Source: a virus
Length of the DNA: 64,000 nt
IMG/VR virus record: IMGVR_UViG_3300037083_000054
Location: 1 to 64,000 of that record
Direction: 5' to 3' (one strand)
Of this stretch, positions 30,583 to 52,440 are shown in pieces (the stretch's first letter is position 1; each line of letters starts with the position of its first letter). The position numbers and the translations under genes are program-made. Under the pieces are notes generated by a model, which saw only the letters and a program-made list of their open reading frames with translations, was not told where the DNA came from and searched no databases.

Positions 30583-30701
30583 AACCCCTTTTAATCAGGG
30601 GCGTTCCCGATAGAATGTTCGATGGTTGGTCGCATTCTGGTGGAAACGCCGGTTTGTGATTCCGTCCCTGATTCGATTCACAGTCGAGTCAGGGATTTTT
30701 T
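30583..30701 (+). ncRNA. Structured transposase leader / putative antisense RNA (copy 1)
   Basis: CCCCT/AGGGG RBS hairpin, GGCGTTCCC..GATAGAAT..GGAAACGCC helix, + strand terminator hairpin 30665-30701 with two G-U pairs. Confidence 0.65.
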
Positions 30702-30719
30702 ATTGGCCAGTGCCAACAC

Positions 30720-30764
30720 GAGCTAGCATACAAAAATAAAAACGATTGTCAAGTATGCTTGCTC
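30720..30764 (-). promoter_or_regulatory. Sigma70-type promoter of the transposase flanked by operator inverted repeat
   Basis: TTGACA-N16-TATGCT on - strand; GAGCTAGCATAC / GTATGCTTGCTC. Confidence 0.7.
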
Positions 30765-30897
30765 GGAATTGAATGTTGTGTTACGATTCTTCTGCTACGC
30801 ATGCTTGCCACGTCAATAGTGCAGGCGCAATGGTTTTCGGCAGGTGTCACGAAAACACGCAGATCGTACGGAAAACAGCAGGTGAAGGAGTCGAATC

Positions 30898-31962
30898 ATG
30901 AAGAAGAAAGAAGCGAGCGAGCACGCAAGGGCCTTGTCGTCTCTTGGAGCGTCCAAAGGTGGAAAGGCAAGGATGGCGAGTCTGACAGAGGAGCAGCGCA
31001 AAGAAATCGCCTCGAATGCCGCTAAGGCTCGGTGGGGAGAAAAGCTGCCGGAAGTGACGCATGGCGATCCAGGGCATCCATTGAAGATCGGTGATATCGA
31101 AATTCCCTGTTACGTCCTGAATGATGGAACCCGTGTTTTGCATCAAAGAGGGATGGTTGATGCACTCGGAATGGCTCGCGGAAGCAGTGGAGGAATTGGC
31201 GGTGACCGACTGGCTAAATTTGTGGCTGGAGAACGATTGAAACCCTACGTTTCAGCCGATTTGCTAGCGGTGACCGAATCACCAATTAAATTCAAGGCTC
31301 CAAATGGCCATGTAGCCTATGGGTATGATGCGAATGTCCTTGCAGAACTGTGCGATGCCGTCATTGCCGCAAGGAATGCCGGAAAGCTGCAAAAGCAGCA
31401 AGCCCACATTGCAGAGCAGTGCGAAACTCTGAAGTCTGGGTTTGCCAGAGTCGGTATCATTGCGTTGGTCGATGAAGCGACCGGATATCAATATGACCGT
31501 GCCCGTACCGCATTGGCAGATATCCTAGAAGCGTTTCTGAAGGGAGCACTGGGTGCGTGGGCCAAGCGATTCGATGATGACTTCTACAAGGAATTGTGCC
31601 GCCTTCGAGATATCCCGTGGCCACCAATCAAAAATCTTCCATCGTATTTTGGCCATCTTGTTAACGATGTAGTCTATGACAGACTGGCTCCAGGATTGAA
31701 GTCTGAGCTTCAGGCGAGGAGCCCGAAGACTCCACGCGGCAATCGTAAGAACAAAATGCATCAGTGGCTGACGGACGATATCGGTCATCCAAAACTGAAA
31801 GAACATATCATCGCGGTAAAGGCATTAATGCGTTCTTGTGACGATTGGGAAGATTTTCATCGTCGGCTAGATAGGGCCTTTCCAAAATTCGATTTGTCAT
31901 CATTGGATTTACCGGAAAATGTCATCATGATTGAAGCCGAAAATAAGCCTGAAGACTCGTGA
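30898..31962 (+). CDS. P63C domain protein with N-terminal KGGKAR basic motif
   Basis: IPCYVLNDGTRVL, ARVGIIALVDEATGYQ, WAKRFDDDFY, VYDRLAPG, HQWLT.DIGHPKL. Confidence 0.88.
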   Translation: MKKKEASEHARALSSLGASKGGKARMASLTEEQRKEIASNAAKARWGEKLPEVTHGDPGHPLKIGDIEIPCYVLNDGTRVLHQRGMVDALGMARGSSGGIGGDRLAKFVAGERLKPYVSADLLAVTESPIKFKAPNGHVAYGYDANVLAELCDAVIAARNAGKLQKQQAHIAEQCETLKSGFARVGIIALVDEATGYQYDRARTALADILEAFLKGALGAWAKRFDDDFYKELCRLRDIPWPPIKNLPSYFGHLVNDVVYDRLAPGLKSELQARSPKTPRGNRKNKMHQWLTDDIGHPKLKEHIIAVKALMRSCDDWEDFHRRLDRAFPKFDLSSLDLPENVIMIEAENKPEDS

Positions 31963-31987
31963 TCGTTGCATTTCGGGAGAAAACTGA

Positions 31988-32632
31988 ATGGCATCAGTGC
32001 CTATTGTCTGTCCGCATTGCTCACGGTCATACAGAGTAGGCGACACGGCCATCGGAAGAAAAGTGTCCTGCATGAATAAGCAGTGCGGGAAGGCATTTGT
32101 CGCCACGACCTCAATCCGATCCGCTCAGTTTGATTTTGAAACGGCAAAAACAGAAACGCCAGTTGAGATCACGTTTAAGTCGATTGACGAGGAAAAAACC
32201 GAGAAGCAAGCACAAGAATTTGGATTGCCAAAATTTGTGCCTTCCGCTGCGGCACCGCCGCTATCTCCCCCGCCAGTGACACCAGCCTTTTCTTTTGTGG
32301 ATGATGATCGAGAGCCATCTCCGTCGCGTAGTACGAACTCTCGATATCCCAACTTGATGCTCAATCTCGAATGGCTGGAAAACGCCGCAAAACGTCAATT
32401 AATGATCGCAAGGATAATTGCTCTTTTACTAGCAGTTCTTTCAGTGATCGGCGCAATCGGCGTGATGGTTCAGGTAGGGGATTTCACTACCGGAATCGTT
32501 GGAATCGGTCTTTTCCCACCGCTCATCTTGTTTCTGATCATTTCTCCAGCATGGATTCTCTATGTTCTTATGATGGCGACAGTTGAATTCATTCGCGTCA
32601 TTATGGACATCGAAAGAAATACCAGAAAATAA
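31988..32632 (+). CDS. Tn-A cargo, Zn-ribbon membrane protein
   Basis: CPHC...CMNKQC N-terminus; two C-terminal TM helices ending DIERNT. Confidence 0.7.
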   Translation: MASVPIVCPHCSRSYRVGDTAIGRKVSCMNKQCGKAFVATTSIRSAQFDFETAKTETPVEITFKSIDEEKTEKQAQEFGLPKFVPSAAAPPLSPPPVTPAFSFVDDDREPSPSRSTNSRYPNLMLNLEWLENAAKRQLMIARIIALLLAVLSVIGAIGVMVQVGDFTTGIVGIGLFPPLILFLIISPAWILYVLMMATVEFIRVIMDIERNTRK

Positions 32633-33054
32633 TCAGACAATTCCGAAACGTCTTAATGCGTTTCAACTTGCGGAAATGCGTTGCGCCTGCCAATTGCGTT
32701 GCAAAGCCCGCTCGGGCAACAGTTTCATGATGCCTATTGGCAGCCCGATTCTCTCGGCAATCTTCCTCGTGGAATGTGTTGGTTCCGACCGTGGAGCGAG
32801 CAATCCAGCGGCACAAAATCGGCCTGCGAACGAGCGGCCCAAGATCTGATTCGCCCCTATCTGCGGAAGATTGCGGAACTGGAAAAACAGATTTCTTGTC
32901 AGAATCTGGCAGAAAATTTCGCGGAATAGTGAACTGAAACCGCATTTCGTGCGTTCTGTGAAGAAGAATGCGGGGAGTGGCTCGTCAGTAAAGAAGAGAA
33001 GTGTTCATGGAGAGTGTGTTGTTGCAATGAATGTGCTGATGAGGAAGGAGAATC

Positions 33055-33342
33055 ATGAGCGACAGTATTCCTGCGGCTGTTCCAAATCCGACGCTGGGCG
33101 AAGTTGCCTTCGTCGCAATAAAAACTCGTGATTATTCCGACTACGGCGACGCCAGCTACTGGTCTGAAAAATATCGAAACCACACTCACGCCAGAGCAAA
33201 ACTCGATTATGAGTTTCAGGCCCAAGCCGTCCGTTCTGCCGTGCTGAAGGAAGTGAGAGAGAAGCTGATTGCGTTCGAACACAATCGCTGTAACAAAGAA
33301 CTGAAAATGAGCGAACTTTTGCAGGAGCTTGGCGATGAGTGA
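33055..33342 (+). CDS. Small phage protein ((T/S)LG(Q/E) family)
   Basis: AAGGAG RBS; PTLGEVAF. Confidence 0.6.
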   Translation: MSDSIPAAVPNPTLGEVAFVAIKTRDYSDYGDASYWSEKYRNHTHARAKLDYEFQAQAVRSAVLKEVREKLIAFEHNRCNKELKMSELLQELGDE

Positions 33343-33862
33343 AAAAGACTTGATCGTCGATCGCAAAGAGGACATGTCGCCAGAAGGGAAGCTTCGCATT
33401 TTAATGCAGGACGACGGCGACATGATCGTCGAATGCCTTGAGTGGAACGATAGAACAAAGCTGATCGAGAGAACTGCGGCGGTTGAGTTTTGTACACATG
33501 CTGGCGGTGGTCGCAGTCCAAAAACACGCATGGCATTGTTGCAATTGGCTCATGCGATGGCTGAGGAGAATAAGGCTGATCCCGATAGTGCTGGTGACTG
33601 GCTTGGTGAAGCGTTTCTTGATTGGATATATGACGATGCAACAGCCCCACTTCACGCCAGAATCGCGGAGTTGGAGAAACGAAATTCAGAGATTGAAAAT
33701 CGGCTTGATGTTATTGGCTGTCGGATTGAAAAAGTTCGTGACCTAGCGGCGGAACAGCAAGGCTGGCGATGGGAAGCCGTGGCTAAGACGGTTAATGAGA
33801 TTGAACGAATTTACTGCGGCGAGTTGATTGATCCAGTTCTCGACGGAAAGGACGGTGGGTGA
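33335..33862 (+). CDS. Hypothetical phage protein
   Basis: VEFCT..GGGRSPKT motif; LHARIAELE tail shared with next gene. Confidence 0.6.
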   Translation: MSEKDLIVDRKEDMSPEGKLRILMQDDGDMIVECLEWNDRTKLIERTAAVEFCTHAGGGRSPKTRMALLQLAHAMAEENKADPDSAGDWLGEAFLDWIYDDATAPLHARIAELEKRNSEIENRLDVIGCRIEKVRDLAAEQQGWRWEAVAKTVNEIERIYCGELIDPVLDGKDGG

Positions 33863-34236
33863 TGAGTGAGAAATCCGACGGACAGGTAGCGTATGAAACA
33901 ATGTCAGCCGAATACCCGGAAGCACAGTTTGTTCCGTGGTTTCGATTGAGCATTGGGCAGCAGTCAGCATGGAACAAGGTCGTCATTGCGACAAATACAC
34001 ATCTTCACGCCAGAATCGCGGAACTCAACACGGACGTTTCCAATCTTGAAATGGCGGTTGATCATGCGGAAGCGATTGCCAAACAGGAGAAGAAAGAAGT
34101 GTTGTCGCTTCATGCCAGAATCGAGGAGTTGGGGACAGTTCTATGTTCCATCAAAACAGATTTGCACGGGAGTTGTACACCAGCGATGCGAGGAATAATC
34201 GACCGAGTTCTCGACGGAAAGGGTGGTGAAGTGTGA
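33859..34236 (+). CDS. Hypothetical phage protein
   Basis: Two LHARI(A/E)EL repeats; VLDGK.G C-terminus shared with previous gene. Confidence 0.6.
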   Translation: MMSEKSDGQVAYETMSAEYPEAQFVPWFRLSIGQQSAWNKVVIATNTHLHARIAELNTDVSNLEMAVDHAEAIAKQEKKEVLSLHARIEELGTVLCSIKTDLHGSCTPAMRGIIDRVLDGKGGEV

Positions 34237-34490
34237 GAGATCTTACCTACGACGATATCGAGGATGTGATTGAGTTGGTACGAGATAATGCTCCAGCCAG
34301 TCGTCAGCTTAATACGATCATCATTTTGGCATATCAGCGAGATGATCAAATTGCTGAGATCGTCCGACTTCGTGTCGCGTTGGAGAATATTCTATCTGTT
34401 ACCAAAAATAATCGACTATCTCTTGGTGAAGCGTTCAGTGAAATGTCAATTATTGCCAGCGAAGCTCTGTCGGGAAAGGGGGAGATGTAA
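34233..34490 (+). CDS. Hypothetical protein
   Basis: GTGA overlap coupling. Confidence 0.5.
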   Translation: MRDLTYDDIEDVIELVRDNAPASRQLNTIIILAYQRDDQIAEIVRLRVALENILSVTKNNRLSLGEAFSEMSIIASEALSGKGEM

Positions 34491-34668
34491 TGATGATAAA
34501 AATTCTGTTGAGTGAGGGTGAGGCAAATTTGATTTTAGAGGTTGCTAAATCTTGTAGTGTTCCTGACTTGTCAGTCCCAAAGTGTCGGATCGGCAATAGC
34601 GTAACGGCAGACTATTGGAGGGGGATTGCCGAGAAAATTGAGCATCTACTGAAGCGGGAGGGGAAGTA

Positions 34669-34980
34669 GTGAACGGAATTGATTTAATCAAGCAAGAACG
34701 TGGACGGCAGATATCAATCGAAGGTTACCGAGACGTACACGATGATATGCACGTCAGTGGTGAACTTGTACGAGCCGCAGAAGCATATTGTCATGCGATT
34801 GAATGGGTTGATGATCAGATAGTTGCGCGAACACTAAGGCCATCATTTCCATGGCCGTGGGAGAAGAAATGGTGGAAACCGTCAACCGACAATATTAAAA
34901 ACCTCACGAAAGCCGGGGCATTGATCGCGGCTGAAATCGACAGGCTTTTACGTCTTCAGGAAAGGAAGTCAGCGAAGTGA
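34669..34980 (+). CDS. Conserved phage protein (ERxRQ..EG...HDD family)
   Basis: ERGRQISIEGY..HDD.H..GEL..AA, WPW..KWWKP, KAGALIAAEIDRL. Confidence 0.75.
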   Translation: MNGIDLIKQERGRQISIEGYRDVHDDMHVSGELVRAAEAYCHAIEWVDDQIVARTLRPSFPWPWEKKWWKPSTDNIKNLTKAGALIAAEIDRLLRLQERKSAK

Positions 34981-35365
34981 AAACCATCGACGAAATGATC
35001 GCAGTGATGCAGGCCGCAAAATTAGAAAACGGCAAAAACATTCAAATCAGCGATAAGAGCGTTGAACGCTGGTCTGACTGCTACGGAATGCCCGGTTGGA
35101 ACTGGGGGGAATTCGACTACCGCATCGTCCCTCCCCCCCCCCAGTAGAGAAGTGGGTGCATTGGACGATTGAGGAGTGGGAACAAAAAATTCCAATCGCC
35201 GTTCGCCAAAAGAGCACGGGAATCCTTGCGACAGCTTGCGTTTCGGAGAGAGGCAAGATTTGCGTTATTGGTTTGGAGGGGCCGAATTGGAGGACTCTTG
35301 AGCAAGCCTTGAAAGAGTTGACGCTATTTGATGGCAGTCCTTGTGGGAAGTTGGTGACGGAATGA
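34977..35365 (+). pseudogene. Phage gene (WNW..FDYRI family) frameshifted at a C10 tract
   Basis: GTG 34977 frame reads ...PGWNWGEFDYRIVPPPP then stops; the -1 frame continues PVEKWVHWT... to 35365. Confidence 0.55.
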
Positions 35366-36314
35366 TTAGTATTAAGCCTGCGACAGTTAATATGCCTCCA
35401 CGAATTGCTTTGTGCAGACGGTGCGGAAAGCCTTTATGTCGTAGTTCATGTCGTGGAGAAGTCTGTCCAAAGTGCCTGAAGATAAAGTGAAAGACAAATG
35501 ACTCTATCCCCATCCCAACTAGAAGCAGCGGCAAGAGAGTTGTGTAGGCTGAGAGGGAACGAGACGGACGATGAACAGCAGATGTTCCTGAATATCAGGT
35601 GGGCCATTCGAGAAATCAATTTAGCGTTATCAATTGACCCAGACATCCTCGCAGCCATCGAACACGGAAGGAAATCAAAACGACAACGTCAACAGTGATC
35701 ATGGTGAAATGTGACGGTCCTGATTGTCTGCGAAAACACACGGTGGAGACTGGCAGCACGAATCGCTCGGCTGTCGTTGGAAATCGAACTTGGGCGGACA
35801 CAGATGAATGTTCGAAGATAGTCCCGCATTTGCAGGCATTCGTTAATAGAGGGGAGTTGGGGGAATGAATTTTAAGGTAACGCGAACTACTGGGGACATT
35901 GGCAATATCGGAGAAGTTCTCATTGAGGACTGGAAGAACGATCTGCAATGGCAAGGAAAGATCGTGGAGAGTCGGAGCACTCCATGACGATTCTTCGCGG
36001 CTCAGAACGAATATGTCTGCATTAACGCAGGCGTCGTACCGGACTGGGGACTTCAGGGCGATCTGAACGAGGCCGTTCAGGATTTTATTTCCAAGGAAGT
36101 CTGCGTCGAATGTAAAGGGCCAACCAATTTGTCTGGCGATGACTGCCCCTTGAACGACGACAGTAAGGCACTCTGCATTGAATGCTTCAATAAGATGTCG
36201 ACATAACCGGCGGAGACCGGTCGTACAATCAGATTGTTTTCTCGAAATCAATCTGTGATAATAATTTGCACAAATTGACTCCCAACGAACCGCAAGATCA
36301 AGGATGGTTTTGAA

Positions 36315-36941
36315 ATGGCAGGAAAGCCAAGGCGGGCAAAGCCTTACAACGCGAAGCCCAAGAGTCAACAGAAGCCGTGGGAGCCGACCGCGACCCAGCA
36401 AGAGTGGTATCGCAAGTGGGTCATCGAGGGGTGGGGTCCATTGCAGATTGCCCAGAACGAGAACCCGCCGGTGCATGCTCAGAACGTCTGCACGATGCTG
36501 TGGAAGATCGACAAATGGATGCGAGCGATGACACAGGATCAATTGGCGTCCTATCGGCATCGGCAGGTCCAGCAGTGCGAGATGGTGATGGCGGAAGCAT
36601 TGGCGTCATGGCGGAAGTCCCATGGGAAGATCATTAAAATCACAACGATGGACAATGATAACGGAATATCGACAAAAGAGACAGTCGAGATGAGCCATGG
36701 GAATCCAGCCTATCTCATGGTTTACCTTGCGGCCCAGAAAGCGATTGCGAATATCCTCGGCCTCGAAGCGGCCAAGCAGTCGGAAATGAAGATCCTGCAT
36801 GCGGAAGAAATCGAGGGATTGCCAGGAATGCAAGGATATGCGAATCGGTCAGAAGCATTGCTGGCTCAAGCGGATGCCATTCGGACACTCGCTTTGACAT
36901 ATCAGCCGACCGAGGACGAGGCCATTCGGACGCTCGATTAA
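36315..36941 (+). CDS. Terminase small subunit-like / HTH DNA-packaging protein
   Basis: N-terminal HTH-like GWGPLQIAQ, GNPAYL...IANILGLEA. Confidence 0.55.
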   Translation: MAGKPRRAKPYNAKPKSQQKPWEPTATQQEWYRKWVIEGWGPLQIAQNENPPVHAQNVCTMLWKIDKWMRAMTQDQLASYRHRQVQQCEMVMAEALASWRKSHGKIIKITTMDNDNGISTKETVEMSHGNPAYLMVYLAAQKAIANILGLEAAKQSEMKILHAEEIEGLPGMQGYANRSEALLAQADAIRTLALTYQPTEDEAIRTLD

Positions 36942-36958
36942 ATAAGCGGCTTATTTAT
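36938..36958. promoter_or_regulatory. Palindromic operator copy 3
   Basis: TTAAATAAG-CGG-CTTATTTAT. Confidence 0.75.
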
Positions 36959-37015
36959 TTCAGTCTATTTTTCTCGATGTTTTTGAAAAGTGAGGAAGAA
37001 ATCTGGAGATTTGCC

Positions 37016-37043
37016 TTGACGCTGTCGATATCATTATTATGAT
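37016..37043 (+). promoter_or_regulatory. Sigma70-type promoter
   Basis: TTGACG-N16-TATGAT upstream of the 37098 gene. Confidence 0.55.
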
Positions 37044-37097
37044 ATAGTGAGTATTGGCCATCCATTCGAGAACAATTCAGACGCGGAGTGAAAACCC

Positions 37098-37490
37098 ATG
37101 CAAACTGAAACAATGACTCTTCCTGAAACTGTGAGCATTCCAGAACAGAATTTATTCCGCTTGCAGGAAGCGATTGCGAAGCTTCAGCGGCGTGCGGAGA
37201 CTCGGAAAGTTCTCGTCTATCGATTTCATGCCGAGAATGTGAGACCGGTAGCTTTGGAAGCGTCAGTGCGGATTGTCTTATCTCATATTCATAGGTATGG
37301 CGGCAAAGTGATTGCTGCTCAACTCGTCATCGAGATTGATCGAATCCGGAACCGATTTGAAGTGACAGCCTATTACGAAGGCGATATTCCTCCCATCAAT
37401 CGGCAGCGGGTCGAATCTTACATGAATCCAAAATCATGGGGCCAGTCGTGGTCGACTGAGGAGTTGAGAAATCAACGGCGACCTGTTTGA
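37098..37490 (+). CDS. Hypothetical protein
   Basis: GGAG RBS, own promoter. Confidence 0.6.
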   Translation: MQTETMTLPETVSIPEQNLFRLQEAIAKLQRRAETRKVLVYRFHAENVRPVALEASVRIVLSHIHRYGGKVIAAQLVIEIDRIRNRFEVTAYYEGDIPPINRQRVESYMNPKSWGQSWSTEELRNQRRPV

Positions 37491-38344: not shown

Positions 38345-38588
38345 TGAGAGACTCCTTCCGAGGCGTTTCGGCTTTCCAAATTAGAGTCTTTTTGCCATCT
38401 TCGACAACGGCGATGAATCCGCCGGTCGATTGTGGTGTCAAAAGCTCATAGATCCGCGTGAGTAGCAATTCATCGGAGAACGAATCGGCACGCAACAGGA
38501 TTCTCTGGACCCGCTTTGTTTGCTTCGCTGTTTCGCCGGTCAATCGCATGATGCCGCATTGTCATGTTTTTGCGGCATCCGGTCCAGA

Positions 38589-41522: not shown

Positions 41523-41537
41523 TGAGGCATTCCTTTG

Positions 41538-43870: not shown

Positions 43871-43890
43871 TTGTCCAGTTGTTTGTCCAC

Positions 43891-45852
43891 CTATCGTCGG
43901 CTTCCTGGAATATTGTCGCGACCGCCTCGAACCCGACGTTTTGGCTGATTGAACTTATTGCTCTCGATTTGAACGCTGCCTTTTGAGTGCTGATGGGCCA
44001 TGGTTGACGGCGTCAGACCTCGCGTGCTGGCTTCGGAGAAAAGCCCGTATCGCATGCAATCGACCGCGTCATCGTCAATTTTGACGGGATCAGCACGGAC
44101 GGCTGGCGAGTTCACGTTGGTTGTCAGTTGTTTGTGTCGATGGTAATTCACAAAGTTCCGGCAGAGATTCGGACACTTCTCGCGGACGACTTTCAGGCGA
44201 GATTCGACCGGGAGATCGGGAGCCAGTTGAAATGTCGGCTTCAGTAGATAGCGAACATATTCGATCCCCTCCTCGACATTGTCCTTTTTCGCAAGCTGGA
44301 GACTTGGAGCGTCGTATTCGCCATCAGGGAATTCTTCGCTGACCGTGTACTCGTTGACTTTGCCGAGCGTTCGAACCGCATCCAAATCATGGTCGCACCA
44401 TGTCACGCCGTAGTTTGGATTCCCTTCCGGCCACCAATGCATATCCGCGATTTCCTTCCAATGGTCAATCACGGTCTTCGAGGCATCGTTCGAATAGTAT
44501 TCGTCGTAGATCCACACGCGACCTCGTTGATCGAAGCAGAAGAATAAGCAGACGAAAGCGTGATCAATCGAGAATCCGAAGTCGATCGCTCGCACATGGA
44601 ATAGACCTGATGGCGGCTCCCATCCTTCCGGTGTGCAGTGAATGTTCGGGTTCCATTCGGGATAGACCGCTCCTTCGAAGTTGCCCCATAAGCCTTGTTC
44701 GCGGACAGGCTTCATTGAGTCGGGGACCATGCCGAAAAACTGGTGATACCATTGTTCTGAGATATGGCCCGCTTCCATTGCACAGCGGGTATTGCAGCGG
44801 AAGATGGCCGAGTCGGCGGGGATGTCGCCTTTTTCTTCCATTTCTCGCAATGGCATTGAAAGCGATGGGTCGACCGGCGTGAACTCGACAAGCTTGTTGC
44901 CGGTGAATGAATACTCGCGACAACCTCGCATGACTTCTTCGAGAATGCCCCACGGGAACTGTTCAACGAACAGGAAGCCGCCGATTGATTCGGCCTGCAT
45001 ACTCGCTCGGCCTTGCTCGTAAGACTTGAAGCAAAGCAGCCAGTTCTTGCCGGGTCGATTTGGCCATGACTTCAATGGAACGCTGTAGGGCCAATCCATG
45101 TTTGGCTTGTACCACTGGATACGTGGCCAGTCGATGTCGTTCGGATGGATGTGCCCTTTCTGATGAAGCTTTTCTTTCCAACATGCATTCATCACCATTG
45201 AATAGCTTTGGCTGATGAGCCAAAACGGCGTGTCTCGGCGTGGTGGTGGAGTCTTGTTGATAAACCGCATCATTTTCGCCAGACCGAGCGTCGTCGTCCC
45301 TGAATTGTGGTGATAGATGCCTTCCATCCAGTAGTTTTCATAGATCGGGACGTGAAAGTCCCAATAAACATCCCTACGAACAAAGCAATGAGCTTCGACG
45401 TAAGCGACTTTACCATCGGCCTGAATTAGTCTCACATCGCCATCCGCAACCACATCCCGCATCGTCATCCAGCCATATTCGGTGAAGACTCGATGATCGA
45501 GAGTGACGCAAAAAACATTTCCGTCTGAATCGCCAGAAAGCAGAAACTCGCAGAGATCTTCCGTTCCACAGGCATGCGGCTGTTCGGCTAATGCGATGAC
45601 GCGATTGCCAGTGAATTCGTCGATCGACCAGACGTGGAATGGGCCGGGGATCGAGTCTATGCGGCGAGAGACGTCCAGAATCGGATCATAGATTTCTTGC
45701 TCGGCAGCCGCGCATCCGTTGCCGCCAAGGCAGTACTGGATACCAGATAATTCAGACTCATAGAACGCCGTCTGCATATCATTTCGTTCAGGCTGATCAG
45801 GCCGAGGCTTGAAATGAAAGCATTCGAGTTCTTGAATTCTGGAGAGCGACAT
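43891..45852 (-). CDS. terL: Terminase large subunit containing an intein
   Basis: P-loop GGNG|SGTT, FKSYEQGR..MQ, FTP, nuclease RAIDFG...IYDEYY...DDAVDCMRY. Confidence 0.85.
   Translation of the reverse strand: MSLSRIQELECFHFKPRPDQPERNDMQTAFYESELSGIQYCLGGNGCAAAEQEIYDPILDVSRRIDSIPGPFHVWSIDEFTGNRVIALAEQPHACGTEDLCEFLLSGDSDGNVFCVTLDHRVFTEYGWMTMRDVVADGDVRLIQADGKVAYVEAHCFVRRDVYWDFHVPIYENYWMEGIYHHNSGTTTLGLAKMMRFINKTPPPRRDTPFWLISQSYSMVMNACWKEKLHQKGHIHPNDIDWPRIQWYKPNMDWPYSVPLKSWPNRPGKNWLLCFKSYEQGRASMQAESIGGFLFVEQFPWGILEEVMRGCREYSFTGNKLVEFTPVDPSLSMPLREMEEKGDIPADSAIFRCNTRCAMEAGHISEQWYHQFFGMVPDSMKPVREQGLWGNFEGAVYPEWNPNIHCTPEGWEPPSGLFHVRAIDFGFSIDHAFVCLFFCFDQRGRVWIYDEYYSNDASKTVIDHWKEIADMHWWPEGNPNYGVTWCDHDLDAVRTLGKVNEYTVSEEFPDGEYDAPSLQLAKKDNVEEGIEYVRYLLKPTFQLAPDLPVESRLKVVREKCPNLCRNFVNYHRHKQLTTNVNSPAVRADPVKIDDDAVDCMRYGLFSEASTRGLTPSTMAHQHSKGSVQIESNKFNQPKRRVRGGRDNIPGSRR
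45304..45714 (-). mobile_element. Mini-intein (137 aa) in terminase P-loop
   Basis: CAAAEQEIYD..., TLDHRVFT..GW, YWDFHVP.YENYWMEGIYHHN followed by +1 Ser. Confidence 0.9.
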
Positions 45853-45990
45853 CCGTGTCCATTCGGTGAGTTGGCGTCATTGCCACTATTTACTTTAACG
45901 ACGGCACTTCTGTTTAGCCATCACTATCAAAGCAAAAGCGACAGTAGAGGGGAATCTCTGTCGCTTTCACGGAACGGCTCAACGCCGATT

Positions 45991-46869
45991 TTATGCCTGC
46001 GGGATGTCTTCGATGATCACTCCGCTCCATCCGCATGCGACTTCCACTTCGAACTGATCGAAGACGGCGATGTTCTCGCCATCAATCTCGACACGAAGAT
46101 CATTCGCTTTGTTGATGCGAAGTGCAATCGTTGACCGCGTTGACTTATCAGTTTCTGACGGAGTTTGTCGGCAGAGAACCGCAACTGCATTCGTCGGGAA
46201 TGTAAACTCGGCCTTCATTCCAGTCAGAGGAGACTGGCTCACAGTGATCGAGTCTTCAATCACCACGGGCGAATCGTCAATCATTGTGGGGCAGTCGTAT
46301 TGCTCATCGCGTGGATAGATACCGACAGTCCACGGGCATTCGCCAATCCGCTTGGCCATTCCCGGACTCACGATCACCGTCAGGTCTGGCAATTCGATTC
46401 CAACCTTCTTTGCAACACTCTTTCGATCATGCTGCTTTGAAATCCGCGAAATCTGGCGGCGAATCTGTTCGAACAAAGTATTCGCGGGGACTTCCTCCCA
46501 TGCCGCCAATGACAGTCGAGAAATCGCGGGATCGCTTTTCAGTTTCTCAATCACGGCTGATGTTCGGACTGACATCGCGAGTTGAGCCAATGCTCGCACA
46601 CGCCTCTCGATCTCGTCGGGATCTTTCGATTTGCAGATATCGGTATGCTTCCGCAGAATTCCGCCGCTCTCGATCGGGACAATTTCCACATAACGATTCA
46701 GGGGGAAGTCTTCCGTGTTTCGACTGAAGTCTTTCAGCAGATGCTGCGTTAGTGCATCGTCTCGGAACGACACATTCGAAAGCGTGTTTGCCGTGGCATT
46801 CCGCTGGACAATCCAGCCAAGTCCAAGCCATCCAAAAACAGTCGTCAAAATTGCAGTGCGTCGGTTCAT
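45991..46869 (-). CDS. Hypothetical protein with twin-arginine-like N-terminus; possibly capsid-related
   Basis: MNRRTAIL...FGWLGLG; body recalls major-capsid-type sequences only weakly. Confidence 0.45.
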   Translation of the reverse strand: MNRRTAILTTVFGWLGLGWIVQRNATANTLSNVSFRDDALTQHLLKDFSRNTEDFPLNRYVEIVPIESGGILRKHTDICKSKDPDEIERRVRALAQLAMSVRTSAVIEKLKSDPAISRLSLAAWEEVPANTLFEQIRRQISRISKQHDRKSVAKKVGIELPDLTVIVSPGMAKRIGECPWTVGIYPRDEQYDCPTMIDDSPVVIEDSITVSQSPLTGMKAEFTFPTNAVAVLCRQTPSETDKSTRSTIALRINKANDLRVEIDGENIAVFDQFEVEVACGWSGVIIEDIPQA

Positions 46870-47074
46870 GTTCGATTCGCTCCATTTCGTTCAGATTCGG
46901 AAATCGCATCAATCCACTTCATATCATAATCCCATTCCTCGCACAAATAATCAACGGAATTCAAGAGAACCGGATCGAGGGTGCCGCGAGGAAGGCGGAT
47001 GATTCCGCCATGATAATCCACATGATTCTTGATCAGGATCTCAATTGCTTCGGCATCGGATTCAAAAGGCTGGC

Positions 47075-47341
47075 TCATGACTTCTCCCTGAATTCCACAA
47101 TCAAATCCTTTCCCAATCCAAACGCGATTTTCTTCAGCGTCAGCAATGTTTGCGTGTTCGACTTTGCGTCTTCCAGCGAGGAAATTGTTTGTTGACGCAC
47201 GCCACCAAGTTCCGCGAATTGCGTTTGATTCAAGCCACTGGCATCTCTCAGAGCCATGACTTGACGTGCGATATTGGCGTCGATGGCAGCGAAGAAAGCT
47301 TCGCGAGCAGTCGCTTCGGGATCTTCCATGATCACTTTCAT
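47075..47341 (-). CDS. XRE-family HTH regulator
   Basis: LRDASGLNQTQFAELGGVRQQTISSLE...TLLTLKKIA. Confidence 0.85.
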   Translation of the reverse strand: MKVIMEDPEATAREAFFAAIDANIARQVMALRDASGLNQTQFAELGGVRQQTISSLEDAKSNTQTLLTLKKIAFGLGKDLIVEFREKS

Positions 47342-47431
47342 TCAAAAACAGGACTGCCGATCGGGATTCCACCGATCACCAACAATTTTTGTAGCTGGCA
47401 GTCCATTTACGGCCCGGCAGTCCCGTATATG

Positions 47432-47713
47432 TCACACAATCACAATCTCTCTTGTCGGCGTCGGAAGCCCGCGAGGATCTCCATCGTCAGCCGCAAACCA
47501 TCTCAAATACCATATATTTCCGCGTCTCGATTTCCACATCTTTCCGGGATAGACGCCAGATGGTGTCGATGTGGAATACTCAGCGAGGTTTTTGAATAGT
47601 TGTTCGGTCATCATTGCACAGTTATCGTCGATAAGAACCTGTCTTGAATCCGGTTGACGCCATCCGCGTCCAAGAGGATCTGTAATGGGCGGAATAATAT
47701 TTTCGTGATTCAT
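47432..47713 (-). CDS. Conserved phage hypothetical protein
   Basis: ITDPLGRGWRQP...L.EYSTSTPSGVYPGKMWK. Confidence 0.65.
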   Translation of the reverse strand: MNHENIIPPITDPLGRGWRQPDSRQVLIDDNCAMMTEQLFKNLAEYSTSTPSGVYPGKMWKSRRGNIWYLRWFAADDGDPRGLPTPTREIVIV

Positions 47714-47792
47714 GACAACAACGCTTCCGCCAGAGGATCATTCGTCTCGTCAATCTCATTCATCACAGCCCAAGCCGATACGCCGAATGGCA

Positions 47793-47877
47793 CTAGGATA
47801 AGGGAACTGCTCCCGAAGCAAGCTTTCGATGGTACGTATTTCGTGGCCGCGACATCATATCTTTCCAGCCTTCGCGT
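47793..47877 (-). pseudogene. C-terminal fragment of IS4 transposase
   Basis: ...DMMSRPRNTYHRKLASGAVPLS* with the stop inside the TIR, as is usual for IS4 members. Confidence 0.65.
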
Positions 47878-48062
47878 GGCTTTGCACGTTTAATCCCGAA
47901 TAAAAGTGCAGACGGACCCGAACGGCGAATTAAACGTGCATGCCAAAGGATCTGACAATTGGCGATTATCCGGATTATTTCATTGAAGTTTCTGAATTTG
48001 CAACAGACGTTTTCGCTGCGGCCTTCGCGGCTTTCATGGCTTTAATCTTTTCTCGATACCAG

Positions 48063-48467
48063 TCAGGTATCTTGTGCGTCGTCACAGGCGGAAAGGGAAT
48101 CGTTTCTTTTGAGCAGATGCTTTCTGAGACTGGAAATTCTTCGAAAACGAGCTCCAAACTCCCATTCACCAGTTTTAATGTCCAGTGCGACATAATTCAT
48201 CTCTTCGGTTTCGCAGTGATCAAAATATCGGAGCAGTTCGTCTAAGTCCTTGATGGCAGCAGGTTCATATGTGCCGACAGTTGTCCATTCGTCACGCTCG
48301 GCGATGAATTGCTTTGCTGCCATCTCGCTGGAAAACAATGGAGCGGCATTTTGGATCTCTTCTGGCGAGAGAACAGCCAATATCCCCCTCCATCCCGCGA
48401 CAATATCGACAGGAATCCAAATAGGATACGTAATGTCGATATCATCGTTTTCATGGATTGATTCCAT
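48063..48467 (-). CDS. Tn-B cargo, hypothetical protein
   Basis: Start preceded by GGGAG inside conserved hairpin. Confidence 0.6.
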   Translation of the reverse strand: MESIHENDDIDITYPIWIPVDIVAGWRGILAVLSPEEIQNAAPLFSSEMAAKQFIAERDEWTTVGTYEPAAIKDLDELLRYFDHCETEEMNYVALDIKTGEWEFGARFRRISSLRKHLLKRNDSLSACDDAQDT

Positions 48468-48579
48468 TATGCGAACTCCCGATTGACTACGTACCGGGAG
48501 TTGCTACCATGCCATCGCCATAACCGCATGGTTCTCCCAGAGAACAAAAGAACGCCAGCAATCCCCATTGCTGGCGTTT
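48468..48579 (-). ncRNA. Conserved four-hairpin inter-cargo element (copy 1)
   Basis: Colinear homology with 56008-56121. Confidence 0.6.
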
Positions 48580-48618
48580 ATCATTTTCCAAGATTCATTC
48601 TGAACTGCAATGGCAGAT

Positions 48619-49125
48619 TCAGATTGATCTCTCGGTCTCAATTTTGACTGTCGACATCGTTGCCCAGACCATCAACAAGATCCATACGATGCCGGTCCAC
48701 GCCAAACAGAAGTTCAGAATCAGGATCGGAACCAGATTCCGATGTGCTCGTAAATAGGCGATTATGGACGGCAAGAAATGCAACAAGATTAAAGCAACAA
48801 TGGCAACTGATCCAAATGCCGCGAAAAACACGGCGCGAATTTTGTCGTCGGCCAATGTCTTATTGTTCGCAAAAATCCCCACGCACATTACGACAAACAA
48901 GAGTGCAGTAAGAATCGCAGAGCCAATGACGATAATTTTCCCTTGTCCGTTCTTCGTCCAATAAACTGAAGAATGATCCGATTTCTGGATGATAATTGGT
49001 TCTTCTTTGTCGGCATCACACCTTGGACACACGGTCATTTTCGATGTGTTTGCCGTTGCCGGTATTGCGTAAACTTTACCGCACGACGGACAGGTCCATT
49101 TTTGACGTGACGCACCTGAAGACAT
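48619..49125 (-). CDS. Tn-B cargo, Zn-ribbon membrane protein with superinfection immunity (T4 Imm-like) domain
   Basis: WTCPSC..CPRC; HFLPSIIAYLRAHRN..PILILNFCLAWTGIVWIL.MVWA. Confidence 0.8.
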   Translation of the reverse strand: MSSGASRQKWTCPSCGKVYAIPATANTSKMTVCPRCDADKEEPIIIQKSDHSSVYWTKNGQGKIIVIGSAILTALLFVVMCVGIFANNKTLADDKIRAVFFAAFGSVAIVALILLHFLPSIIAYLRAHRNLVPILILNFCLAWTGIVWILLMVWATMSTVKIETERSI

Positions 49126-49158
49126 GATCTCTCTTTCGTCGTGTTGAGTGTTGAGCAG

Positions 49159-49215
49159 AAAAGACGCATCGGATGCTTGTAAGACTACCGATGCGTCTTG
49201 CTGAGATTCAAGCGA
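49159..49215 (-). terminator. Transposase terminator overlapping a putative cargo promoter
   Basis: AAGACGCATCGG/CCGATGCGTCTT hairpin with U tail on - strand; TTGAAT-N18-TAGTCT. Confidence 0.6.
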
Positions 49216-49220
49216 TGCGT

Positions 49221-50438
49221 TTACTTCGCGAATGCAGGTTCGATACCTAGTTCGTAAAACTCACTGATTAGGCAGCAGATGTTATGTGCCAAAACCTTAC
49301 ACAGAACTTCGTTTTTCATGGCGATTTCGGTCTTGCTGCGAACTGAATCTCCGAACTTGCGTTTTACCATTGAGAATGTGGATTCAATGTTACTCCGCTT
49401 GTGATACGACTGAAGAAACTCCTCACGGTACAAGCTGAAGAAATGAAATGCCTTGCCAAACAATCCACCGATGCCGCCTGTAGTTCCCGAACGAAACGTG
49501 ATGTATGGCTCGGCCCCGAGAGCATTGATGGCTCGGAAGTTCGATTCGCTCGCATACTGAGTGTCGGCACTCACTTCCTTAACGTCGAAATTCTTTGCGG
49601 TTGTCTGCATGAGTGCTGGCAGAAGTGGTGAATCATTCGCGTTGCGGTCAAGGATTTCCACAGCCGTGATGACATTCGTTTTCACCCCGCACACGGCATG
49701 CAGCTTGACCCAAGTATGCTCAGTCCTGACTTTTCCATATTTATGATCGAACCATCTAATGAACTTCGACGATGTGAAACCTGATGAATCAACCGCAAAA
49801 TCGGTTTCAACGCTTTTGAGCGGCAAACTGGATGTCTGGATCAATTGAACAAGATGTTCCGTCATTTCTTCATCTTCTAGCGCAGTGCTGATCGCATTGA
49901 AATGCGGTGTTCGTTCGATATACCCCTTGTACTTCGCATCGTCCAGATCGCACATAAATCTTCTCTGGCTGACAGTGCTGTAAACCTTGAAACAGGCCAT
50001 GAATATGCAGTCAGACATGGGAATTCGTGGGCGACCGCGTCCAGGCGTCGCTAAGGGTGCCTTGACGTTGTCGCACAGCGATCGCAATAGCGACTGAAAG
50101 TGATCTTTCTCGCTCGTCTGCGCCTGATTGTATTCCGCCCACATTTGAGGATATGTCGGACGTTTGACGGTCGTAGAAATAGTCACTTCCTCAGTCGTTG
50201 TCTCAGTGCCGTCCGCGTTCTGCTCGCGTTTGATGACATATCGGACGGCGTAAATGTGCTTGCACTCTTGACCACGTTTTTCGAAGTCCGGGCAATTGCA
50301 ATAGGGCGTTTGCTCATCTGCCACGACGGTGTATTTGCCTTCGCCTGTCTGACTGGGGACGATCCACACTTGTCCTTTTTGCACAATTCGACTTCCGGCA
50401 GCGATCGTAGCACCACGTTGTTCTCTTGCTTCGCACAT
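49221..50438 (-). CDS. DDE transposase with SWIM Zn finger (homolog of 29270 gene)
   Basis: MCEAREQRG start aligns with MDAREQRG; CNCPD..CKH; AVDSSG, SADTQY, YHKRSNIESTFSMVK. Confidence 0.9.
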   Translation of the reverse strand: MCEAREQRGATIAAGSRIVQKGQVWIVPSQTGEGKYTVVADEQTPYCNCPDFEKRGQECKHIYAVRYVIKREQNADGTETTTEEVTISTTVKRPTYPQMWAEYNQAQTSEKDHFQSLLRSLCDNVKAPLATPGRGRPRIPMSDCIFMACFKVYSTVSQRRFMCDLDDAKYKGYIERTPHFNAISTALEDEEMTEHLVQLIQTSSLPLKSVETDFAVDSSGFTSSKFIRWFDHKYGKVRTEHTWVKLHAVCGVKTNVITAVEILDRNANDSPLLPALMQTTAKNFDVKEVSADTQYASESNFRAINALGAEPYITFRSGTTGGIGGLFGKAFHFFSLYREEFLQSYHKRSNIESTFSMVKRKFGDSVRSKTEIAMKNEVLCKVLAHNICCLISEFYELGIEPAFAK

Positions 50439-50442
50439 GACT

Positions 50443-50558
50443 TGCCTCTTTTTCTGTTGAGGCATTCCCGATAGAATCGCAATTGCTATGTCGCGGATTG
50501 GCGGGAACGCCAGTTTGTGATTCGCCCCGGTTTCGATTCGCAGTCGATTCCGGGTTTT
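50443..50558 (+). ncRNA. Structured transposase leader / putative antisense RNA (copy 2)
   Basis: TGCCTC/GAGGCA RBS hairpin, GGCATTCCCGATAGAAT..GCGGGAACGCC, terminator hairpin 50526-50558. Confidence 0.65.
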
Positions 50559-50571
50559 CCTTACGCATAGT

Positions 50572-50638
50572 ATTGTACGGACATAATTATCGGAAGTCAA
50601 TAAGAAACCATTGACAAAAATAATTTTGTCCGTACACT
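50572..50638. promoter_or_regulatory. Divergent sigma70 promoters with operator inverted repeat
   Basis: - strand TTGACT-N17-TACAAT; + strand TTGACA-N16-TACACT; TGTACGGACA / TGTCCGTACA overlap both -10 boxes. Confidence 0.8.
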
Positions 50639-50644
50639 TCCAGC

Positions 50645-50902
50645 ATGCACGAAAAACGACCAGGAAGACCGCCAAAGTCAGGCGTCGCATTCGGAGTTCG
50701 CATCGAGATTCGAGCGACGGACGAAGAGCGAGACCGCATCGACAAGGCGGCGAGCATTGCCGGTAAAGAGCGATCCGAGTGGATTCGTAGCACGCTGCAA
50801 TTAGCGGCGAATCAGACAATTGAAGAACATGATTCACAACCAGTGTTGAAAATGACGAAGAGATCTGTAAAATCAAAGAAGACCGGCCATGCTGGAACAT
50901 GA
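50645..50902 (+). CDS. Ribbon-helix-helix-like regulator (DUF1778/MobA-like), probably leaderless
   Basis: RPGRPPK..IEIRATDEERDRIDKAA....RSEWIR; ATG 6 nt after -10. Confidence 0.8.
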   Translation: MHEKRPGRPPKSGVAFGVRIEIRATDEERDRIDKAASIAGKERSEWIRSTLQLAANQTIEEHDSQPVLKMTKRSVKSKKTGHAGT

Positions 50903-51183
50903 CCGGCTTCGAGAGAAAAACGCCAATCTTCGGGATTGGCACCGATGGCATCCTGCCATCACCTGCTATCCGTCGAGGAACAGCCTGTCATTGCGGCAAA
51001 TTGCCGTCTTGTCAGATCGAACCAAAACGGAAGCAGGCCATGAAGCCATATGGCTTGCATGGCAGTCCTCCTGAAAACCGAGCGATTGGATTATCTTGGG
51101 TTCTAAGTCAAAGTACCCAATCCTCGGTCACTGAGGCACCACTATCCACAGTGGCCCGGATGTCGCCTCGTTTGGCATCCGGG

Positions 51184-51533
51184 TTATTTCTTCGCTTCCT
51201 CTCCACTCCATTTCCCGTCCGGGAGCTTTCTGAAGTTTTTGTCGTTCAGCGTGGTATTGACAGTTCCCTGCGGAATTCCTGATTTGGCGATAACGTCACG
51301 ACGCAACATCGGCCCCTCTTTAATCAAAAACTCTCTCAATTCTTGAACCCTAGTCTTTCCCGCAGTAGTGGCATTGCCTGCTGGCGTTTTATTGCCTCCG
51401 CCTGCCGGAGTTTTCTGATTCGACCGGGGCGGTTTTGAAGTAATTCGCTCAATTGCTTCTGCACCGAGCATTAATTCCTCCACTGTCGTTCCGATTGCAA
51501 TCCAGCCATTTTCTGTTTTTTGAATTGATGCCA
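51184..51533 (-). CDS. Tn-B cargo, small protein with C-terminal winged-HTH-like region (start uncertain)
   Basis: LREFLIKEGPMLRRDVIAKSGIPQGTV...F..LPDGKW. Confidence 0.55.
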
Positions 51534-51783
51534 TACAAGTCCCCGCGATTCTGTTCCAGACGTCGATAATGACAATACTTATGAATGGTATCGACCATAA
51601 CGTAAAAAGCAATAGCGCAGGGAACGACCATAATTTGGTCATGCGTCCATATTGCCTGAAAACGAAAAAGGCCCGGAGATCCGCAGATCACCGAGCCTTG
51701 ATAAGTTTGAGAAAGCCCCCGTCAGTTGATTAAAAGTGCAGAACTGCGATTATTCGTGCAAGTGCCATTAAACGTGCAAAGCC

Positions 51784-52316
51784 ACCGCACCAGTGGCAAA
51801 AGAAATCAGAGCGACTGCCCGCATGATGGGGAATCCGAGGCCCGCGACGGTGGTTTTGACTCGTGGGAATTCCAATTGGTTCTCAGCAGTATCCGGCATT
51901 GAGAGTGTCGTACCGTCAGCCAGGAACAGTTCACGGCCTCGCCAGTGCCAAGCATTGTCGGCAGTACCGTGAACGCTGCATCCGATTTCCTTCGCAAGTC
52001 GCGACATCACTTGAAGAGGGAAGCGACTGCGGGCGTCGGCATAGCTAGCGGATGACGCTGAACAGGCAGGAAGTCCATTCGCCACGCGATGAGCCAGAAT
52101 CCGGCTCACAGCTTCATTGAGCGATTTATCTTGACTGAGACACTGAGACAGCCACGCCCATAGAGTGACCAGCGGGCAAAACACTCGTTGACGATATTCG
52201 TGCCCTTCATCTTCGAGAACACCGACAACATGGTCGCGTTTGAGAAGTCGTCCAAATGGAAGCCCGTCATCATTTGCAAATGTGTCACGAACTAAGCGGA
52301 AGTCTTTTCTGCTCAT
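51784..52316 (-). pseudogene. N-terminal fragment of IS4-family transposase, cut by Tn-B
   Basis: RQRVFCPLVTLWAWLSQ, SYADARSRFP, WRGR.LFLADGTTLSMPDT, GFP; homology ends at the Tn-B TIR. Confidence 0.88.
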
Positions 52317-52320
52317 CTGA

Positions 52321-52440
52321 TTCGCCTTTTCTTCAGGGCGAACCGTGATAGAATGCTGTTGTGATACGGGGCATTCTGGCGGATTCGCTGGTTTGAACTG
52401 GACCCGGTTTCGACGCCAATTGAAGCCGGGTTTTTCTTTT
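52321..52440 (+). ncRNA. Structured transposase leader / putative antisense RNA (copy 3)
   Basis: TTCGCC/GGCGAA hairpin over the RBS region, GATAGAATGC..GCATTCT helix, terminator CCCGGTTTCGA/TTGAAGCCGGG + T run. Confidence 0.62.

Follow-up and report, generated by a model that had tools for sequence, protein, structure and literature searches.

The stretch of DNA analysed here, called the window below, comprises the first 64 kb (64,000 nucleotides) of a 122,834-base virus record in IMG/VR (IMGVR_UViG_3300037083_000054). It carries three homologous stretches of about 130 bases, each ending on the start codon of a minus-strand gene, and these three copies of one leader element, together with the wider family to which they belong, are the subject of this report. 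Two of the genes behind them encode transposases that combine a SWIM zinc finger with a DDE domain (SWIM-DDE), and the third encodes the beginning of an IS4-family transposase. The original prediction, made from the letters of the window, had placed three structured leaders directly 5' of transposase ATG codons; this was confirmed, and the sequence features that it listed were found in their places. It had also recognised the three genes as transposases, with the corrections that all three are on the minus strand and that the third is only a 181-codon fragment.

Two covariance models were used in the searches: R1, built from the copies in the record, and R2, rebuilt from 47 copies of the family. 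With R1, copies 1 to 3 scored 105.5-128.6 bits, compared to 8.9 bits for the next match in the 122,834-base record.

30575 to 30707, minus strand: leader element copy 1; R1 128.6 bits (over the full model), R2 103.7 bits; ends on the ATG of a SWIM-DDE transposase gene
50436 to 50567, minus strand: leader element copy 2; R1 105.5 bits, R2 80.2 bits; stands before the second SWIM-DDE transposase gene
52314 to 52443, minus strand: leader element copy 3; R1 114.3 bits, R2 88.2 bits; stands before the truncated IS4-family transposase gene

In total, the covariance-model search gives four copies in the record. The fourth lies just beyond the end of the window (record positions 64070-64197, L025:2070-2197), in the opposite orientation to copies 1 to 3, and precedes a third SWIM-DDE transposase gene (64195-65463); a divergent open reading frame (ORF) for a 63-residue protein resembling ribbon-helix-helix (RHH) regulators is found at 63806-63997.

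Folding of the two strands

Across the family, 74 distinct copies were aligned; some of the tests reported below were run on a subset of 47 of these, and the folding model on 72. On the mRNA strand four covarying helices are found: P1, a 5' hairpin; P2, a long-range helix; P2a, which lies inside P2; and P3, just before the start codon. Pairing was preserved in 92.3% of 1630 cells compared to 74.5% in shuffles (with similar values on the 47 copies), 22 of the 24 pairs showed changes on both sides, and the covariation score was 0.420 compared to a maximum of 0.061 with slid partners, in alignments that were fitted to the model and therefore favour the structure. P3 covaries across the family as well (80-83% of cells paired). 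The G-U pairs favour the mRNA strand both in P2 (37 vs 12) and in P2a (16 vs 5). P1 folds on both strands, with the antisense version the more stable of the two in 35 of 47 copies. In the window the sense helices are placed as follows.

30585 to 30650, minus strand: sense helices of copy 1 (fold, family covariation), with the purine tract AGGGG in the 3' arm of P3
30585-30589 CCCCT with 30597-30601 AGGGG, plus-strand letters: P3 of copy 1 (sequence, fold)
30600-30608 with 30642-30650, minus strand: P2 of copy 1 (fold)
30612-30617 with 30633-30638, minus strand: P2a of copy 1, nested in P2 (fold, family covariation)
50444 to 50511, minus strand: sense helices of copy 2 (fold, alignment, family covariation)
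50444-50448 GCCTC with 50459-50463 GAGGC, plus-strand letters: P3 of copy 2 (sequence, fold)
50461-50470 with 50502-50511, minus strand: P2 of copy 2, with a G-U pair on the mRNA strand only
52321 to 52388, minus strand: sense helices of copy 3 (fold, alignment, family covariation); P2 and P3 share 5 bases
52321-52326 TTCGCC with 52337-52342 GGCGAA, plus-strand letters: P3 of copy 3 (sequence, fold)
52338-52345 with 52380-52388, minus strand: P2 of copy 3 (fold, alignment)

The hairpin that had been predicted before each start codon thus corresponds to P3, whose arms are found in all three copies, and its 3' arm holds AGGGG, GAGGC or GGCGAA at 6-8 nucleotides (nt) before the ATG. The longer helix in which its anti-ribosome-binding-site arm was expected to pair instead is also present, as P2, but the expected competition between the two is partial: the 3' arm of P2 overlaps the 5' arm of P3 by 2, 3, 5 and 3 bases in copies 1 to 4 (alignment read by eye), and with so few bases in common in copies 1 to 3 the helices compete only in part. 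The minimum-energy fold of copy 1 has P2 and P3 side by side. A word described as invariant, GATAGAAT, does stand at 30609, 50470 and 52347, but the fourth copy reads AGTAGAAT in this region, with the hexamer TAGAAT kept. The same 8-mer occurs four more times in the record, on the other strand, so that it is the aligned position that counts and not the word itself.

On the opposite strand each copy would encode a short antisense RNA, predicted to start about 7 nt after TAGAAT, to fold into a hairpin (H1) and to end at an intrinsic terminator.

30623 to 30702, plus strand: predicted antisense RNA 1 (folds), with a terminator-like site at 30664-30696 and a T run; start about 7 nt after TAGAAT (30611-30616)
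30637-30652, plus strand: core of hairpin H1 in antisense RNA 1, with a GAAA loop (fold)
50484 to 50558, plus strand: predicted antisense RNA 2 (folds), putative -10 box TAGAAT at 50472-50477, H1 core at 50498-50513
50526-50530 with 50550-50554, plus strand: terminator arms of antisense RNA 2, then TTTT at 50555-50558; not called by the terminator scan
52361 to 52436, plus strand: predicted antisense RNA 3 (folds), putative -10 box TAGAAT at 52349-52354, preceded by TG, H1 core at 52376-52391
52400-52433, plus strand: terminator of antisense RNA 3, then a T run; called by the terminator scan

With the start assumed at 7 nt past the hexamer, the predicted RNAs are 69-91 nt long (mean 76). The stretch of about 40 nt between hexamer and terminator folds with -16.9 kcal/mol on the antisense strand compared to -7.5 on the sense strand, and the antisense fold is the better one in 47 of 47 copies. 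In this stretch G-U pairs make up 204 of 651 pairs on the antisense strand and 26 of 383 on the sense strand, with mean z-scores against shuffles of -2.9 and -0.35 respectively. When the 74 predicted antisense RNAs were aligned with MAFFT, without fitting to a structure, RNAalifold recovered the H1 core, often closed by GAAA, together with the terminator, and found compensatory change in 15 of 15 pairs. Pairing amounted to 90.1% of cells compared to 69.5% in shuffles and covariation to 0.568 compared to at most 0.161 with slid partners, the structure under test having been derived from the same MAFFT alignment.

The characters of an intrinsic terminator, that is a G+C-rich stem of 10-13 pairs, a short loop and a U run, are found on the strand opposite the transposase. 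At least six of the nine bases after the hairpin are U in 66 of the 74 copies on the antisense strand, and in 54 of 74 the P1 hairpin of the sense strand has no T after it. For the window, hairpins with T runs had been predicted on the plus strand; the scan called those of copies 1 and 3 (30664-30696, 52400-52433) but not that of copy 2, which is followed only by TTTT. The G-U asymmetry reported for these hairpins held, with 2, 1 and 2 G-U pairs in copies 1, 2 and 3 on the plus strand and none on the other.

As for the hexamer, 45 copies have TAGAAT, 14 TACAAT, 7 AAGAAT and 6 TAGACT, with TATGAT and AAGAAC in one copy each. Its A2 is kept in 74 of 74 copies and its T6 in 73, and positions 3-5 change together with their P2a partner, which is the pattern that would be expected of a -10 box also pairing in the mRNA. 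An antisense RNA of about 80 nt starting from TAGAAT, as originally proposed, finds strong comparative support in the shape of the hexamer in 74 copies, in the H1 fold and in the hairpin with its U run, but not in a -35 box: none was found to be conserved with the hexamer and, for lack of one, the consensus promoter scan makes no call at the site.

Members of the family and the genes behind them

Building a covariance model, searching Planctomycete genomes and tabulating the downstream genes had been proposed as a check on the leaders, together with a search of Rfam, where a match would have removed the novelty. The element matches no Rfam family. At the gathering score, Rfam 15 gave only a tRNA at 56811-56879 over the whole window and nothing on the element, and at E <= 1 the element remained unmatched in six family loci. 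One family copy has, at a distance of about 300 bases, a sub-threshold Rfam match to tmRNA or a tRNA-like RNA (L067:1900-1967, minus strand; 31.9 bits compared to a gathering score of 47). The literature searches gave no description of the element; an overlap with the motifs "Rhodopirellula-1" and "Transposase-resistance" of Weinberg 2010 (PMC2864571), neither of which carries an Rfam number, is possible.

The 74 distinct copies were collected from genomes of Planctomycetes. Among five Planctomycete genomes that were chosen for their SWIM-DDE loci, four had full-length matches (21 in total), three of them labelled Planctomycetaceae and the fourth Planctomycetia. Around one genome (G004), matches were present in 17 of 33 genomes of its family, 43 of 151 of its order (with the model from 47 copies), 12 of 151 of its class, and one of 151 in the phylum sample; this last one is G004 itself, R1 and R2 alike finding only the centre genome. 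Samples of more than 40 genomes were searched with stricter filters, and a miss stands for an element not found in the genomes searched. A pattern scan of IMG/VR gave seven loci, of which two were true members (L144, L142), so that carriage by phages is not unique to the present record; the first of them (L144:3962-5295), in a viral contig of 87.6 kb, holds a full copy with an IS1-type transposase and a divergent RHH gene. An earlier scan with the pattern GATAGAATN{26,36}CGCYRGTTTG had given 21 loci, none resembling the element, all of which were chance matches.

SWIM-DDE transposons do not inherently include the leader, since their relatives lack it: at none of 39 bacterial and archaeal loci with a related transposase is the SWIM-DDE gene preceded by the element, and at the one such locus in IMG/VR (L024) the gene is truncated at its 5' end and has no leader. 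The sole model match among these loci (L026) is 1.4 kb away and ends on the ATG of an IS1-like transposase.

Of the 74 copies, 72 stand directly before a transposase gene or its remnant and 70 end on ATG or GTG. By tblastn to representatives, the downstream gene is IS1-like in 59 cases, IS4 in eight, SWIM-DDE in five and neither in two, with an intact frame of at least 250 residues in 42 of 59, six of eight and five of five cases, respectively. The IS4 assignment is based on NF033592 (196.5 bits, cut-off 115; L065) and the IS1 assignment on NF033558 (101.7, cut-off 100; L068), with the other IS1-like proteins below cut-off. In the SWIM-DDE proteins the Pfam SWIM and DDE_Tnp_1 domains are above cut-off, and the NCBIfam IS5 model is below it (99-103, cut-off 140). 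Divergent ORFs were RHH-like in 32 and of P63C type in two of 47 copies (list read by eye); a motif count gave divergent RHH genes in 40 of 74, with a motif that is too strict and misses copies 2 and 3 of the window.

At one of the two loci without a downstream transposase (L134:1501-1638, minus strand), a full-length element is followed by a gene for a large secreted repeat protein with a signal peptide; here an ordinary gene may have acquired the leader cassette, or the cassette may have remained in front of it. The second case is a truncated element beside another insertion.

The original prediction regarded the leader as a module portable between transposase families, which was borne out and extended to a third family, the families now being IS1-like, IS4 and SWIM-DDE. 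The leaders are not grouped by the transposase that they precede: in 58 of 74 copies the nearest neighbour is linked to a transposase of the same family, and several of the leaders before IS4 genes have their closest relative among those before IS1-like genes. An IS4-linked locus shares 76% identity with an IS1-linked one over a stretch of 553 bases, which reaches from the RHH gene across the leader and stops at the start codon. It is because leaders are mixed across families and homology ends at the start codon that the idea of a portable module holds. In a single genome, four paralogous IS1-type units (L067, L069, L072, L075) have nearly identical leaders, RHH genes and intergenic regions that are visibly more diverged, and unrelated sequences past their stop codons; the leader is the best-conserved part of these units.

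A probable control cassette, its alternatives and related systems

Beside each element in the window there is a back-to-back pair of sigma-70-like promoters, and the predicted transposase mRNA starts a few bases upstream of the element. The regulator slot on the other side is filled by a small RHH-like gene in copies 2 and 3 and by a P63C-domain protein in copy 1.

30725 to 30752, minus strand: sigma-70-like promoter of the copy 1 transposase mRNA, TTGACA-16-TATGCT, a consensus match only
30898 to 31962, plus strand: divergent P63C-domain protein in the regulator slot of copy 1 (Pfam)
50572 to 50600, minus strand: promoter of the copy 2 transposase mRNA, TTGACT-17-TACAAT (consensus scan), within the inverted repeat 50574-50590 / 50620-50636 and back to back with a regulator promoter at 50611-50638 (plus strand)
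50645 to 50902, plus strand: divergent RHH regulator of copy 2, TacA1 / NikA-like (Pfam above cut-off)
52468 to 52496, minus strand: promoter of the copy 3 transposase mRNA, TGGACA-17-TATTAT, back to back with a plus-strand promoter at 52515-52542
52552 to 52749, plus strand: divergent RHH-like small regulator of copy 3 (ORF; NikA-like / TacA1 Pfam matches below cut-off)

We consider it probable that the structured transposase leader and a cis-antisense RNA of about 76 nt form a two-strand control cassette, most likely a repressive one. The sequences show the conservation of the element, its covariation and strand-specific folds for either strand, its position before transposase genes and its exchange among their families; the production of the antisense RNA and the repression are what we infer. 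The transposase mRNA would start at the sigma-70-like promoter, which overlaps an inverted-repeat operator adjoined by the divergent RHH-type (or P63C) regulator gene. Its 5' untranslated region (UTR) would fold into P1, then P2 enclosing P2a, then P3, the 3' arm of which holds Shine-Dalgarno-like purines in the window copies. On the opposite strand, the -10 box TAGAAT inside P2a would drive the antisense RNA. This RNA would comprise a single long hairpin rich in G-U pairs (H1) and, as its intrinsic terminator, the complement of P1 with a U run. It would match the first 75-80 nt of the leader with perfect complementarity, and its pairing there would open P2 and P2a. Transposase output would most likely be lowered in one or more of three ways: further closing of P3 and the initiation region, targeting of the duplex by RNase III, and collision of the facing promoters. 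Duplex cleavage and promoter collision are equally plausible contributors.

The antisense target ends about 35-45 nt before the start codon; in the window, the predicted 5' ends (30623, 50484 and 52361) lie 46, 46 and 45 nt from the start codons at 30577, 50438 and 52316. The antisense RNA can therefore not mask the ribosome-binding site directly. Since the 3' arm of P2 overlaps the 5' arm of P3, opening of P2 could lengthen P3. When the target was blocked in a partition-function model, the unpaired probability of positions -14 to -4 fell from 0.47 to 0.39, with lower accessibility in 43 of the 72 copies, higher accessibility in three and no change in 26. The switch as first proposed, in which antisense binding removes the long helix, lets the hairpin over the ribosome-binding site form and silences translation, thus agrees with the model in direction, though only weakly in size, the shift being small and the P2/P3 overlap in the window being only 2-5 bases.

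Several observations weigh against this interpretation. The modelled effect is small, and absent in 26 of 72 copies. No -35 box accompanies the hexamer, and pairing could account for part of the hexamer's conservation, since it forms the 3' arm of P2a as well. The loop of P3, and not its arm, apparently holds the purine tract in many of the IS1-linked copies (alignment read by eye). The five basal pairs of P1 contain 12 G-U pairs on the sense strand compared to one on the antisense strand, and a further 5' hairpin is present in many copies; P1 and the A run may thus have a role in the mRNA too. The limits already given for both covariation tests also belong here, and the copies are related mobile elements, so that the counts overstate the number of independent events. 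Metatranscriptome contigs from three runs, each with 5-6% of the words of 49200-53000, cover only 50913-51148 and none lies on an element; they speak neither for nor against the antisense RNA, and a fourth run gave no contig on the stretch.

The same parts could also work with the opposite sign, the antisense RNA activating translation by unfolding the leader, as has been reported for the activator Asr9 of ISPpu9 (PMC8450116). The geometry fits this, with an RNA that is complementary to the 5' UTR without covering the ribosome-binding site and that must for this reason act through refolding, and 29 of the 72 copies lose no accessibility in the folding model. Asr9, whose position on ISPpu9 is similar, activates where the switch as first proposed would silence. 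We nevertheless regard activation as rather unlikely, because the blocked target lowers accessibility in most copies and raises it in only three, and because the freed 3' arm of P2, overlapping the 5' arm of P3, would lengthen P3.

Unlikely, too, is a leader that acts without any antisense RNA, in which P1, the A run, P2, P2a and P3 would work in the mRNA (in stability, in Hfq or ribosome loading, or in masking of initiation) and the hexamer would be kept as part of P2a or as a protein site. The strong covariation on the sense strand, the sense-only G-U pairs at the base of P1, the missing -35 box and the lack of a transcript in the metatranscriptome contigs, with their narrow coverage, are all compatible with it. 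It leaves unexplained, however, why the 40-nt stretch folds well on the antisense strand only, in all 47 copies and with 204 G-U pairs, why a U run follows the 10-13-bp G+C-rich hairpin on that strand only, and why A2 is kept in all, and T6 in nearly all, hexamer variants. Nor does it account for pair 102-134, where the T opposite the first base of P2a is kept in the 21 copies that have a gap in the partner column.

Conservation at the DNA level, as a binding site for a transposase or regulator or as a recombination site for module swapping, is very improbable: homology does break exactly at the start codon in one pair, and the element always adjoins the operator region, but five helices show compensatory changes and strand-specific G-U pairs, which speaks for selection on the RNA, a single binding site would not be common to three unrelated transposase families, and the inverted-repeat operators are located beyond the element and vary from copy to copy.

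Building on the two-strand cassette, we tentatively propose that the unit which evolves and moves is the control cassette as a whole, comprising repressor gene, operator with back-to-back promoters, leader and cis-antisense RNA. It would have recombined at the start codon between IS1, IS4 and IS5-like SWIM-DDE genes, have been joined at least once to a non-transposase gene, and travel into phages on cargo-carrying transposons. If so, it could be a general, self-contained limiter of expression for hazardous genes in Planctomycetales, and its antisense RNA could act between copies.

Control of transposases by antisense RNAs and leaders has been described for a small number of individual proteobacterial insertion sequences. 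In IS10/Tn10, facing promoters near one end of the element produce the transposase mRNA (RNA-IN) and a stable stem-loop antisense RNA of about 70 nt (RNA-OUT), which limits transposase, works across copies, and overlaps the start of RNA-IN including the ribosome-binding site. The present element would resemble IS10 in a stem-loop antisense RNA limiting transposase and, if the putative inner promoter is real, in facing promoters; it differs in that the overlap is confined to the upstream leader and does not reach ribosome-binding site and start codon. An IS10-type facing promoter inside the element would be represented by the -10-like hexamer, present in 74 of 74 copies, but without a -35 box or a scan call. 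The IS200 transposase is of the Y1 type and thus different from those found here. Neither in sequence nor through Rfam is the element related to IS10, IS200 or ISPpu9; no Rfam family matches it, and this includes any that Rfam may have for the IS200 antisense RNA.

For IS200, Ellis et al. (2015, PMC4513863) describe a small RNA (sRNA), art200, encoded opposite the 5' UTR of tnpA with about 90 nt of complementarity, whose pairing at the translation initiation region keeps 30S from binding; the structure of the 5' UTR also represses translation, and both layers keep transposition low. An sRNA opposite a structured transposase 5' UTR is likewise predicted here, but it would end 35-45 nt before the start codon and not at the initiation region, and the present element is common to three transposase families and accompanied by a divergent regulator gene. 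For ISPpu9 of Pseudomonas putida, PMC8450116 reports a long 5' UTR that folds over the ribosome-binding site and is refolded by the antisense sRNA Asr9, which raises translation, with a second sRNA, Ssr9, counteracting it. The likeness lies in an antisense sRNA that has complementarity with the UTR and acting through a change of fold; the differences are that Asr9 activates, whereas the folding model here leans to repression, and that ISPpu9 is a single insertion sequence of one species, whereas the element spans a bacterial order and phages. A 5' UTR helix that includes the ribosome-binding site, as in IS200 and ISPpu9, is found here in P3 of the window copies. Finally, an RHH (Arc) protein encoded within IS605-family transposons has been proposed as a repressor (bioRxiv 10.64898/2026.09.24.754181); this resembles the small RHH proteins described here, in another transposon family, with no leader or antisense RNA named in the title or the opening of the abstract, and with the difference that the RHH gene of the present units stands divergent to the transposase and is followed by the RNA element.

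Compared to IS200, ISPpu9 and IS10, the closest systems described, the logic is common, and the differences are a target upstream of the ribosome-binding site, the divergent repressor gene and, above all, the three transposase families. What is new here is a cassette exchanged between such families, antisense and leader control itself being known from IS10, IS200 and ISPpu9. No Rfam family covers this RNA element, which was present in 43 of the 151 genomes sampled from one Planctomycete order and in three viral records (this one and two others). If our interpretation is correct, regulatory RNA modules of mobile elements can be exchanged independently of the enzymes that they control. We know of almost no characterised small RNAs from Planctomycetes, which would gain a directly testable candidate sRNA family, and annotators would gain a marker for a cargo-carrying transposon family that is also present in phage genomes. 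As the element is compact and constrained on both strands, it offers a clean system for the study of one DNA encoding two interacting RNAs.

Transposons and other neighbouring features

The transposase genes behind the three window copies, and the one transposon whose two ends could be paired, are listed below.

28301 to 32708: transposon Tn-A, 4.4 kb, which carries copy 1; perfect 20-bp terminal inverted repeats (TIRs) GGCTTTGCAACGCAATTGGC and a 9-bp target duplication CGCTCGGGC
29270 to 30577, minus strand: transposase of Tn-A, 435 residues, SWIM zinc finger and DDE_Tnp_1 (Pfam); the nearest NCBIfam model, IS5-family, is below cut-off
49221 to 50438, minus strand: second SWIM-DDE transposase, 405 residues (Pfam SWIM and DDE_Tnp_1)
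51774 to 52316, minus strand: N-terminal 181 codons of an IS4-family transposase, cut off at an abutting TIR-like transposon end (51783)

The Pfam match of the third gene itself is weak (Nterm_IS4, E 0.0025, below cut-off); its product is 80% identical over 178 residues to the 461-residue protein of L065, which belongs to the IS4 family above the NCBIfam cut-off. The remainder of the truncated gene is absent from the record.

No terminal inverted repeats were found immediately flanking each transposase gene, the real ends being further out. Transposon ends of the GGCTTTGCAC type, related to those of Tn-A, are present at 47878 (plus strand), 51783 (minus strand) and record position 65475 (minus strand). 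Over 23 bases the ends at 47878 and 65475 are almost the same, and that at 51783 diverges after 17. When pairing of these three ends was attempted (Tn-B, Tn-C), no matching target duplications were found; related transposons within the phage may have recombined with one another or undergone deletion.

Upstream of the A run, a further small hairpin is present in many copies (L105, L078, L113; about 30706-30719 in the window). Its arms change together (GTTGGG..CCCAAC, GTTGGC..GCCAAC, GTTGC..GCAAC) and it is located between the -10 box of the mRNA promoter and the A run, so that it would be the 5'-terminal hairpin of the mRNA.

The metatranscriptome contigs mentioned above are 222-256 nt long, come from three studies (two of the runs are perhaps one data set filed twice) and match 50913-51148 at 99% or more. 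This region lies within an ORF (50899-51282, plus strand) that follows the TacA-like RHH gene of copy 2. The ORF, for which Pfam gave no match, may represent a toxin-like partner gene of wide occurrence.

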